Source: Escherichia phage Ec_YwIITB1
Length of the DNA stretch: 64,000 nt
Sequence record: PQ356294.1
Reading direction: 5' to 3' (one strand)
Each line of letters starts with the position of its first letter. Position 1 is the stretch's first letter. Below, one piece after another: positions 59,301 through 60,502 of the stretch. The notes beneath the pieces are model-generated. The model was not told the origin of the DNA. It saw only the letters and a program-made list of their open reading frames with translations, and did no database searches. The position numbers and the translations under genes were made by a program.

Positions 59301-59697
59301 TGGGCATCTCGTTCAGGCAAATGATAGTTATTCAACGTTTGTCCGCGATGTTTATGTCCGTTCTGATATTCGCGTTAAAAAAGACCTCGTTAAATTTGAA
59401 AATGCTTCTCAGAAGCTTTCTAAAATTAACGGTTACACTTATATGCAGAAGCGAGGCCTGGATGAGGAAGGTAATCAGAAATGGGAACCTAACGCCGGTT
59501 TAATTGCTCAAGAAGTTCAAGCTATTTTACCAGAATTAGTTGAAGGTGACCCTGATGGTGAAGCTTTACTTCGTTTGAACTATAACGGTGTAATTGGTTT
59601 AAATACAGCTGCAATCAATGAGCATACCGCAGAAATTGCAGAACTTAAATCAGAAATCGAAGAACTTAAAGCATTAGTTAAATCATTGTTAAAATAA
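56384..59697 (+). CDS. 37: Long tail fibre distal subunit gp37, T2-type with C-terminal intramolecular chaperone domain; apparent frameshift at about 56432 after codon 16
   Basis: ATG at 56384 encodes [16 protein letters not shown] then stops; continuation (…[19 protein letters not shown]...) is in another frame and runs to 59697 (ORF 56470..59697). Confidence 0.85.
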
Positions 59698-59728
59698 TAA
59701 GAGGGGCTTCGGCCCCTTGGAGGTTTAT

Positions 59729-60502
59729 ATGGCAGTAACAGGACCGTGGGTAGGATCGTCTGCAGTAGTTAATACAGGACAAAATTGGATGGGTGGCGCG
59801 GCCCAACGATTAAGAATGGGTGCTCCATTTTGGATGAGTAATATGATAGGTCGATCTGTTGAAATAATTCACACGCTTGGAGCAGACCATAACTTCAATG
59901 GTCAATGGTTCCGAGATAGATGTTTTGAGGCAGGTAGTGCACCTATAGTGTTTAATATTACAGGTGATTTAGTATCATATTCTAAAGATGTTCCTTTATT
60001 CTTTATGTACGGAGATACACCGAATGAATATGTTCAGTTGAACATACATGGTGTAACGATGTATGGCCGTGGCGGGAATGGCGGTAGCAATAGTCCTGGC
60101 TCAGCTGGGGGTCATTGTATTCAAAATGATATTGGTGGGAGACTAAGAATTAATAATGGCGGAGCTATTGCCGGTGGCGGCGGTGGCGGCGGTGGTTATT
60201 CACAAGCCAACAACTGGGCGGGAAAATATGTTTGTGGTGGCGGTGGCGGTCGTCCATTCGGCTTAGGCGGAAATAATGGTGCTCGATGGCCTGGTGGTAA
60301 TGCTAGTTTGACGTCTCCGGGTGCTGGCGGTAATACTGGTACAGGGTATTATGCAGGTGGCGGTGGTGAAGTTGGTCAACCTGGTCAATATGCTAATCCA
60401 GGTTCTGGTTATTCAACACCTCCGACAAATCCTGGTGCTGCTGTAGCAGGATCAGCTCCAACATGGCAGAATGTTGGAGCAATATATGGTTCAAGAGTAT
60501 AA
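59729..60502 (+). CDS. 38: Receptor-recognising adhesin gp38 (T2-type, glycine-rich motifs)
   Basis: ORF 59717..60502; ATG at 59729 preceded by GGAGG; poly-Gly stretches ([26 protein letters not shown]) separating variable segments. Confidence 0.85.

Follow-up and report, generated by a model that had tools for sequence, protein, structure and literature searches.

The long tail fibre tip of Escherichia phage Ec_YwIITB1: a T2-type module with a patchwork gp38 adhesin and a predicted OmpC receptor

Genes 37 and 38 occupy the same positions in T4 and in the 64,000-nt stretch of Escherichia phage Ec_YwIITB1 (PQ356294.1) analysed here (the window), which also has the same proximal fibre genes and a homologous N-terminal part of gp37. 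However, in T4 it is gp37 itself that carries the receptor-binding tip, gp38 being a chaperone unrelated to the gp38 found here. The question raised by this locus is, then, which of the two proteins would recognise the host, and through which receptor. The initial annotation, made from the letters alone, had placed at 59350-60502 a T2-type module formed by a gp37 end resembling self-cleaving intramolecular chaperones and unlike the T4 tip, and by a glycine-rich gp38 of the T2/T6 adhesin type with poly-Gly motifs between variable segments. The window is that of a Tequatrovirus, approximately 96% identical to Shigella phage pSs-1, the closest genome (NC_025829; 95.9% identity across 24 kb of the segment). 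Pfam matches and ORF calls define a late tail-fibre cluster with the order g34-g35-g36-g37-g38-t, in which g38 adjoins the 3' end of the S74-ending g37 and lies upstream of the holin gene t. The features of gp37 that bear on the question are:

56384..59697, + strand: gene 37, long tail fibre distal subunit, 1103 aa after removal of a 2-nt insertion
59359..59364, + strand: predicted autoproteolytic site DVYVR^SDIRVKK, aligned with the S16 site DLNVS^SDRRIKK
59362..59694, + strand: gp37 C-terminal intramolecular chaperone (Peptidase_S74), 111 aa (Pfam PF13884, E=2.2e-12)

Once the insertion is removed, gp37 is 97.7% identical to that of pSs-1, 91.3% to that of AR1 and 85.5% to that of PP01, and its Pfam matches are Gp34_trimer and Peptidase_S74. 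The latter domain sits at the extreme C-terminus of the fibre protein, where residues 965-1024 of the 1075-residue ORF match positions 1-57 of the 58 of the PF13884 profile (47.5 bits against a cut-off of 22). All 111 residues align with the C-terminal domain of S16 gp37 (6F45_A, E=4e-32), including a heptad-like helical segment, and weaker alignments were obtained with the MYRF ICA domain (7DC3, E=0.032) and with the tail fibre chaperone 8JOV (E=0.09). The S-D-x-R-x-K signature is in register in all of them (SDIRVK here, SDRRIK in S16, SDERLK in 8JOV, (A)DLRAK in MYRF), and the SDxRxK cleavage motif is conserved in gp37 of pSs-1, AR1, PP01, T2 and T6. By Pfam, T2 and T6 gp37 carry S74, whereas T4 gp37 lacks it and has Collar and Phage_fiber instead. 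Thus, both the likeness to a self-cleaving chaperone and the unlikeness to the T4 tip are borne out; of the module coordinates, the features are present where they had been placed, but the first residue of the S74 domain is the Ser encoded at 59362, 12 nt (4 codons) after 59350.

The catalytic role of the Ser and Lys residues of S74 domains is established for the family, and Drexler and co-workers are said to have described, in 1986, an autoproteolytic release of the C-terminus of T2 gp37. In the protein under study Ser993, at P1', and Lys998, five residues downstream, are the candidate catalytic dyad. gp37 would form a homotrimeric beta-helical fibre, its folding being aided by its own C-terminal 111-residue S74 chaperone, and after trimer formation the dyad is predicted to cut the Arg992-Ser993 bond (Arg964-Ser965 in the numbering of the ORF). 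Mature gp37 should then end at Arg992, and the release of the chaperone would leave a flat trimeric tip exposed. The model for these events is S16 gp37, also a beta-helix ending in an autocleaved S74 chaperone (PDB 6F45; PMC6851490, PMC7917993), which is cleaved at the aligned position with release of 113 residues (PMC7917993); the S16 cut follows Ser-Ser, the one predicted here, with its 111 residues, Arg-Ser.

The exposed gp37 tip would be the docking site of gp38, the features of which are:

59729..60502, + strand: gene 38, T2-type receptor-recognising adhesin, 257 aa (Pfam GP38 and Gp38_N; PDB 9V85, 6F45_D)
59729..59848, + strand: gp38 N-terminal attachment domain, aa 1-40, with W7, W20 and W35 aligned with S16 tryptophans
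60173..60196, + strand: poly-Gly run G149-G156 (GRM2, long PGII helix), aligned with GGGGGGGG in PP01 and S16

[quoted passage not shown] The gene name and position, common to T4, would be compatible with gp38 being a T4-type assembly chaperone absent from the virion, with gp37 binding the receptor, but nothing more speaks for it. BLASTP of gp38 against T4 gp38 gives E=80, T4 gp38 is without Pfam match while the protein found here falls in the GP38 adhesin families, and the gp37 found here is without Collar and Phage_fiber and ends in S74. The T4-type chaperone is thus refuted at the sequence level, and the probability left to it is negligible.

The attachment domain of gp38 is 100% identical to that of pSs-1, and the S16 tryptophans at the positions of Trp7, Trp20 and Trp35 plug into gp37 (PMC6851490). 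S16 gp38 is a monomer in which three tryptophans serve for docking and which contains a beta-helix and a PGII sandwich (PMC6851490). The same architecture is predicted here, with one gp38 monomer docking on the gp37 tip via its N-terminal helical domain and these three Trp residues. The cognate pairing is kept, the attachment domain and gp37 residues 913-1103 being 98-100% identical to their pSs-1 counterparts. The glycine content of gp38 is 24% overall and 34% in residues 113-257, and the poly-Gly motifs noticed initially correspond to runs of eight (residues 149-156), five (170-174) and four (210-213) glycines. The GRMs all align with those of PP01, S16, T2 and T6, the loops alone being variable; those of S16 are 0-17% identical to the ones found here. 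Polyglycine sandwiches model poorly from single sequences. The high identity to 9V85 leads us to infer a PGII sandwich with five loops as the C-terminal fold; in this arrangement the C-terminal two thirds of gp38 would consist of a beta-helix and of a polyglycine-II sandwich to which the glycine-rich motifs give rise, with the five variable loops (A-E) projecting toward the host surface.

On the basis of published experiments (PMC3157838, PMC12892980), the gp38 loops are expected to determine host range, as the initial annotation had proposed. For the receptor call, gp38 was aligned with reference adhesins of T6 (Tsx), T2 (FadL/OmpF), AV119 (OmpA), fPS-90 (OmpF), PP01 (OmpC) and S16, AV119 standing in for the OmpA binders and fPS-90 for the OmpF binders in place of K3, Ox2 and M1. 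The loops that follow GRM2 are:

60203..60232, + strand: loop B / HVS2, aa 159-168, identical to PP01 loop B
60272..60289, + strand: loop C, NNGARW, aa 182-187, identical to PP01
60332..60349, + strand: loop D, NTGTGY, aa 202-207, identical to PP01, with the equivalents of PP01 G208 and Y209
60395..60415, + strand: loop E, NPGSGYS, aa 223-229, identical to pSs-1 and 86% to PP01

The counterpart of PP01 residues 158-259 is 99% identical, within the same fold family as PP01 (PDB 9V85) and AR1 gp38, and residues 156-257, with loops B-E, are 100% identical to pSs-1; the identity of loops B-E to those of T6, T2, AV119, fPS-90 and S16 is no more than 0-38%. The functionally mapped residues of PP01 (PMC12892980) are all kept: Y159, Q161, K168 and Y169 as Y157, Q159, K166 and Y167, G208 and Y209 as G206 and Y207, and Y230 as Tyr228. 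The only difference in loop E is at its tip, where Ala228 of PP01 is replaced by Ser226. Since loops B-D are those of PP01, and loop E is that of pSs-1 with a tip-only difference from PP01, the receptor predicted for this gp38 is an OmpC porin of the E. coli O157/Shigella type. The PP01 receptor is OmpC of E. coli O157, with cross-links of G208 and Y230 to OmpC loops 5 and 7 and with Y209 being essential (PMC12892980). Loop E of the gp38 studied here is predicted to enter the OmpC cleft that lies between loops 5 and 7. Lys166 and Tyr167 of loop B may add a contribution from LPS. A receptor of pSs-1 determined by experiment was not found in the literature searched; the hosts of HY01, whose gp38 shares 99% identity with the pSs-1 protein, include both E. 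coli O157:H7 and S. flexneri (PMC5201272).

Loop A does not belong to this set. It reads GSNSP (HVS1, aa 119-123, nt 60083-60097), has 100% identity with the T6 loop but 0% with that of PP01, and is two residues shorter than in pSs-1, while the PP01-type loop A (W119-I124, GWAAGAIGASDGGV), carried by all sampled members of the PP01/AR1/pSs-1 subgroup, is absent. The DNA accounts for this difference:

59962..60146, + strand: T6/G28-type patch in g38, comprising GRM1, loop A/HVS1 and the next beta-strand, delimited by mismatches with pSs-1
60147..60171, + strand: crossover interval coding RINNGGAIA just before G8 (GRM2), identical in all parental types

A tblastn comparison of gp38 with the phage collection ended at residue 140 (low-complexity filter), and its band of at least 99% identity describes the N-terminal half only; the mosaic comparison was based on DNA and explicit alignments in its place. 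The 185-nt patch holds 45 of the 46 mismatched g38 columns with respect to pSs-1, and from 60147 to the stop codon at 60502 there are 0 mismatches to it. Conversely, the identity to T6 across 60080-60163 is 97-100% in bins of 30 nt, and 60077-60171 has 0 mismatches with G28. The crossover limits are set by the last pSs-1 mismatch at 60146 and the first G28 mismatch at 60172. Thus, gp38 is a natural patchwork with a T6-type loop A on an otherwise OmpC-binding PP01/pSs-1-type loop set. The T6-type loop A was probably acquired through homologous recombination, one crossover having fallen within the conserved stretch that codes for GRM2.

The T6-type HVS1, together with the G28/CP-like 5' half of the gene, could be taken to indicate Tsx, the T6 receptor, all the more so when the 98.6-99.3% identity of gp38 residues 1-140 to the T6-type adhesins of G28 and vB_Eco_CP is considered. 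Of these phages T6 itself is a Tsx binder, and the adhesins of G28 and CP are called T6-type by sequence. T6, G28 and vB_Eco_CP have the same loop A with the same flanks, but HVS2-4 (loops B-E) are unrelated, with 0-38% identity, whereas nearly all Tsx binders have all four HVSs in common (PMC3157838), and T6-type HVS1 is also joined to at least two other HVS2-4 sets (P0019, P0020). A precedent is offered by phage Mi, known here from its description, the gp38 of which is likewise a natural chimera of a T6-like HVS1 and a different HVS2-4 set and does not use Tsx (Trojet et al. 2011, PMC3157838); the remaining HVSs of Mi are reported as novel and OmpA-dependent, as opposed to the PP01/pSs-1-type segments found here. 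By taking into account the dissimilar loops B-E and the Mi precedent, Tsx was rejected as the receptor, and is considered highly improbable.

The combination of T6-type HVS1 with PP01-type HVS2-4 was not found in the annotated phage collection, in an exact-sequence look-up, or in cluster sampling, in which one cluster was covered for 40 of its 92 members. A scan of IMG/VR for the junction also gave 0 matches, a figure that says little because the control halves alone gave 0 (PP01-type HVS2) and 2 (T6-type) matches; the 0 matches in JGI metagenome contigs, from a scan run without control, say equally little. Laboratory crosses yielded no intra-domain reassortants of this class (Trojet et al. 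2011, PMC3157838).

What the foreign loop A would do to binding can be judged from published work on its relatives. In T6, deletions indicate that every HVS is needed and that all act together, in synergy (PMC3157838), and therefore a foreign loop A could modulate binding. With Ser226 at the loop-E tip, it might alter or widen the specificity with respect to PP01/pSs-1, toward other OmpC alleles or a second receptor. The failure to find the loop combination elsewhere in the collections searched and the 0% identity of loop A to that of PP01 are in line with this possibility, as is the loop-E tip, which is polymorphic in the clade (A, S, V, N or H) and functionally sensitive in PP01, where Val or Leu in place of Ala228 is tolerated, Asp or a deletion is not, and Ser is not among the replacements reported in the available part of PMC12892980. 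On the other hand, a chimera of T2 gp38 up to residue 157, with T2 loop A, and PP01 158-259 still gives plaques that depend on OmpC(O157), and among the 19 positions tested those of loop A gave no cross-link to OmpC (PMC12892980). Ser226 is moreover a common natural variant, shared by pSs-1 and the representative of the 92-member cluster. Published chimeras thus indicate that OmpC dependence does not require loop A, and an altered or widened specificity is considered unlikely. Because the loop-E tip is Ser where PP01 has Ala, the OmpC allele preference may differ from that of PP01; since the engineered T2/PP01 chimera is analogous, the primary receptor should be unaffected by the T6-type loop A. 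Somewhat more doubtful still is the proposal that in this natural intra-domain reassortant, with T6-type HVS1 joined at GRM2 to PP01/pSs-1-type HVS2-4, the foreign loop A re-tunes specificity; if that loop measurably shifted the OmpC alleles or hosts recognised, the phage would be a ready natural experiment on the re-tuning of polyglycine-sandwich adhesins by exchange of a single loop. Overall, we consider it probable that the region specifies the distal, receptor-recognising end of a T2-type long tail fibre, working as proposed from its expression to OmpC binding.

One anomaly has to be reconciled with a functional fibre tip, namely

56431..56435, + strand: 2-nt insertion breaking the g37 frame after codon 17 (alignment and indel list)

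As written, g37 consists of a 24-codon ORF from the ATG at 56384 and of the long ORF 56470..59697. The site reads GGTCAGCACGT here against GGTCA--ACGT or GGAGC--ACGT in relatives; the best database matches all span 183 nt where the window has 185 nt, and the insertion is unique among them. Compared with pSs-1, gp37 has divergent patches at aa 1-50 and aa 769-912, and the insertion is found only in the window. The indel list contains no compensating indel, and no canonical X XXY YYZ slippery heptamer was seen by inspection in 56426-56458. If real, the insertion would prevent the synthesis of full-length gp37, leaving the phage without a full-length distal fibre and gp38 without a docking site, as expected of a defective or non-viable genome copy. 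However, the 1075 codons 3' of the insertion form one uninterrupted frame without decay, and for most of this length the protein keeps 98-100% identity to pSs-1 gp37. Furthermore, nrdB and frd, both conserved, are likewise frame-split relative to pSs-1, which suggests that all three splits are sporadic indels from assembly or sequencing. The inserted sequence itself resembles a merge of the natural variants GGTCA|ACGT and GGAGC|ACGT, as a consensus or polishing artefact would. In T4, plaque formation needs the long tail fibres. The insertion is thus probably an assembly error, and a non-functional module quite improbable. Programmed frameshifting or reinitiation across the break was also considered and found unlikely, given the missing slippery heptamer, the uniqueness of the insertion and its merged-variant look.

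With the frame repaired, the module is an ordinary, well-known tip of T2-like coliphages and Shigella phages, present in hundreds of deposited Tequatrovirus genomes, its only unusual feature being the patchwork adhesin, and current understanding is unchanged. In annotation terms, the fibre tip is to be recorded as T2-type, not T4-type, with gp38 as the receptor-binding protein and O157/Shigella-type OmpC as the first receptor candidate, which is of use for host-range prediction and phage engineering; loop A and the loop-E tip residue are the positions to swap for tuning specificity. Exchange at glycine-rich motifs was proposed decades ago as a route of adhesin diversification, and the chimeric loop set is a small, concrete natural example of it.

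The signals for expression of the module are:

55673..55680, + strand: T4-type late promoter consensus TATAAATA, 5' of g36, exact match
59701..59718, + strand: intercistronic C(UUCG)G tetraloop hairpin GAGGGGC-UUCG-GCCCCUU, between the g37 stop and the g38 Shine-Dalgarno
59719..59723, + strand: Shine-Dalgarno GGAGG of g38, 5 nt ahead of the ATG, read from the sequence

The promoter role of TATAAATA is established in T4 late transcription. The copy at 55673 is the likely start of a late g36-g37-g38 transcript, a second exact copy being found at 50606, upstream of g34; in the window 18 matches were counted versus 9.1 expected. The hairpin, a 7-bp stem capped by UUCG, lies in a 56-nt context with an MFE of -17.7 kcal/mol (z=-2.35), and its reading as a + strand terminator is unsupported because no T-run follows it on that strand. 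The start of g38 is the ATG at 59729, the mechanical ORF call giving a TTG at 59717.

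The T2-type tip module recognized in the initial annotation, namely a gp37 C-terminal chaperone domain followed by a glycine-rich gp38 adhesin, is real and was correctly interpreted, every residue quoted there being present in the window sequence. Such modules are already textbook knowledge and are annotated in hundreds of Tequatrovirus genomes, so that what the analysis adds is a predicted gp37 cleavage site, a predicted OmpC specificity with residue-level support from a recent structure−function study, the description of gp38 as a natural reassortant with a mapped breakpoint, and a frameshift in g37. 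The module belongs to a canonical T-even late tail-fibre cluster on the plus strand (50648-61189):

50648-54517, plus strand: g34, 1289 residues
54526-55641, plus strand: g35, 371 residues
55704-56375, plus strand: g36, 223 residues (Pfam Phage_T4_gp36)
ATG at 56384, long open reading frame to 59697, plus strand: g37, frame broken near the 5' end
59729-60502, plus strand: g38, 257 residues
60533-61189, plus strand: t (holin), 218 residues (Pfam Phage_holin_T, E=8e-117)

Exact copies of the T4-type late promoter box TATAAATA are found at 50606, upstream of g34, and at 55673, upstream of g36. Shigella phage pSs-1 is the nearest relative of the 40000-64000 segment (95.9% identity), followed by other Shigella and E. 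coli Tequatrovirus phages. Residues 58-112 of the fibre hinge protein gp35 unexpectedly match the Pfam domain ILEI (interleukin-like EMT inducer; 33.3 bits versus a cut-off of 27, E=7e-8).

The Pfam profile Peptidase_S74 ('chaperone of endosialidase') matches residues 965-1024 of the long g37 reading frame over profile positions 1-57 of 58 (E=2.2e-12; 47.5 bits versus a gathering score of 22). When the last 111 residues were used as the sole query, they aligned over their full length with the C-terminal domain of gp37 from Salmonella phage S16 (6F45_A, E=4e-32); weaker alignments were obtained with the intramolecular chaperone domain of MYRF (7DC3, E=0.032) and the tail-fibre protein 8JOV (E=0.09). 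The S-D-x-R-x-K signature is in register in all alignments (SDIRVK in the window protein, SDRRIK in S16, SDERLK in 8JOV), and the motif VY[VI]RSD.R.K is common to gp37 of pSs-1, AR1, PP01, T2 and T6. The description of this tip as unlike that of T4 also holds, because PF13884 scores on T2 and T6 gp37, as on the window protein, but not on T4 gp37, which contains Collar and Phage_fiber domains in its place. Autocleavage of the last 113 residues of S16 gp37, between the serines of DLNVS^SDRRIKK, was reported to expose the gp38 docking surface (PMC7917993). From the alignment with this site, cleavage of the window protein is predicted at DVYVR^SDIRVKK. In the repaired protein of 1103 residues, the cut would fall between Arg992 and Ser993, the predicted partner of Ser993 is Lys998, and 111 residues would be released.

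That gp38 is of the adhesin type, with poly-Gly motifs, was confirmed by matches to Pfam GP38 (E=4.6e-74 over the full profile) and Gp38_N (E=2.1e-21), of residues 37-257 to the PP01 gp38 receptor-binding domain, crystallized as an sfGFP fusion (9V85, 1e-132), and of the whole protein to S16 gp38 (6F45_D, 2.6e-53). Glycine accounts for 24% of the residues, with G8, G5 and G4 runs starting at residues 149, 170 and 210. Three tryptophans plug S16 gp38 into gp37 (PMC6851490); their equivalents are W7, W20 and W35. Similarity to the chaperone-only gp38 of T4, which would have contradicted the initial annotation, was not significant by BLASTP (E=80).

At the DNA level, g38 and its pSs-1 counterpart differ by one mismatch over 59729-59961 and at 45 alignment columns, a 6-nt indel among them, over 59962-60146, and are identical over the remainder of the gene (60147-60502, stop codon included). 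The opposite pattern is obtained with phage G28, whose gene is of the T6 type: the part up to 60076 contains only 10 mismatches, 60077-60171 contains none, and the two sequences diverge completely thereafter. Because the two patterns are reversed around it, the 25-nt interval 60147-60171 is the deduced site of the crossover. This interval, the sequence of which is the same in all parental types, encodes RINNGGAIA immediately upstream of the G8 run, the second glycine-rich motif (GRM2); the conserved glycine-rich stretches have long been proposed as recombination sites of adhesin genes (PMC3157838). Laboratory crosses reportedly did not yield reassortants of this intra-domain class (PMC3157838). 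Judged from sequence, gp38 is thus a natural reassortant of hypervariable segment HVS1 (loop A), with its breakpoint mapped.

The alignment with adhesins of experimentally known receptor, a check suggested in the initial annotation, included PP01 and AR1 (OmpC), T6 (Tsx), T2 (FadL/OmpF), AV119 (OmpA), fPS-90 (OmpF) and S16 (Salmonella OmpC), with loop limits taken from the PP01 crystal structure (PMC12892980). Loops B, C and D are identical to those of PP01, and loop E is 100% identical to that of pSs-1 and 86% to that of PP01, versus 0-38% identity of loops B-E (HVS2-4) to all other receptor classes; loop A is 100% identical to that of T6 and 0% to that of PP01. The PP01 residues of demonstrated importance (Y159, Q161, K168, Y169, G208, Y209, Y230) are all conserved, with the sole exception of the loop-E tip, where Ala228 is replaced by Ser226, as in pSs-1. 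In PP01 (PMC12892980), loop E inserts into the cleft between OmpC loops 5 and 7, to which G208 and Y230 cross-link, and the host determinant is the presence of GVIN as an insertion in loop 7 of OmpC. Ala228 of PP01 can be replaced by Val or Leu, but neither by Asp nor by a deletion, and a chimera of T2 up to residue 157 (with T2 loop A) and PP01 158-259 still forms OmpC(O157)-dependent plaques. The gp38 of phage HY01, which has both E. coli O157:H7 and S. flexneri as hosts, shares 99% identity with pSs-1 gp38 (PMC5201272). Phage Mi, a natural chimera whose HVS1 is T6-like, has been reported not to depend on Tsx (PMC3157838). On the basis of the PP01-identical loops B-D, the conserved residues, the T2/PP01 chimera and the HY01 hosts, OmpC of the O157/Shigella type is the probable receptor; Ser226 and the foreign loop A may alter which OmpC allele is preferred.

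The combination of T6-type HVS1 with PP01/pSs-1-type HVS2-4 is unseen within the collections searched. The best full-length match to the junction (60030-60330) among 50,697 phage records was 88.7%, the exact protein was absent from a collection of approximately 15 billion sequences, and pattern searches gave no match in IMG/VR or in the JGI metagenomes, although IMG/VR, for which alone a control was run, barely contains this adhesin type. The closest representatives of 90%-identity clusters (92% and 89% identical) and every sampled member of their clusters have a PP01-type loop A. T6-type HVS1 is paired with other HVS2-4 sets in two database proteins (P0019, P0020), and natural variants at the loop-E tip in the clade are A, S, V, N and H. 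In another mosaic class (P0017, P0142, P0150), a PP01-type receptor-binding domain follows an N-terminal attachment domain of T6 type (MAVVGVPGWIGSS...), which implies exchange at the domain boundary, matching different gp37 tips. Two truncated PP01-type proteins (P0137, P0140) lack HVS2 entirely, the G-run being joined directly to RPFG, as would be expected from GRM2-GRM3 deletion or from assembly collapse of glycine codon repeats.

Most gp37 blocks are 100% identical to pSs-1, with a few around residues 769-871 at 90-98%, but residues 1-50 (56384-56530) are 94% identical and residues 872-912 (58995-59120) only 63%, being nearer to AR1 (85%); mosaicism therefore extends beyond g38. From the annotated ATG at 56384 a stop codon is met after 24 codons, the long reading frame (from 56470) lying in another frame. 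Alignment with six relatives revealed a 2-nt insertion after codon 17 (approx. 56431-56435), with GGTCAGCACGT in place of GGTCA--ACGT or GGAGC--ACGT. None of the best database matches contains it, all spanning 183 nt versus 185 nt in the window, and the inserted sequence resembles a merge of two natural variants. Downstream the frame is intact, most 30-50-residue blocks being 98-100% identical to pSs-1. A sequencing or assembly error is the most likely origin of the break, and a genuinely defective g37, as the reading frame taken at face value would indicate, is improbable. Two other conserved genes, on the minus strand, are also split with respect to pSs-1: nrdB (40324-41498; 392 residues in pSs-1) into frames 40929-41498 (189 residues) and 40324-40920 (198 residues) by a 4-nt deletion (ATAT) at approximately 41005, and frd (dihydrofolate reductase, 45435-46012; 194 residues in pSs-1) into 45644-46012 (122 residues) and 45435-45737 (100 residues) within a cluster of small indels (45647-45721).

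Finally, a hairpin with a C(UUCG)G tetraloop (59701-59718; GAGGGGC-UUCG-GCCCCUU) follows the g37 stop codon and abuts the g38 Shine-Dalgarno sequence GGAGG. Hairpins of this extra-stable intercistronic type were first described in T4 mRNAs, and the present one might influence the translation of g38 or the stability of the mRNA.
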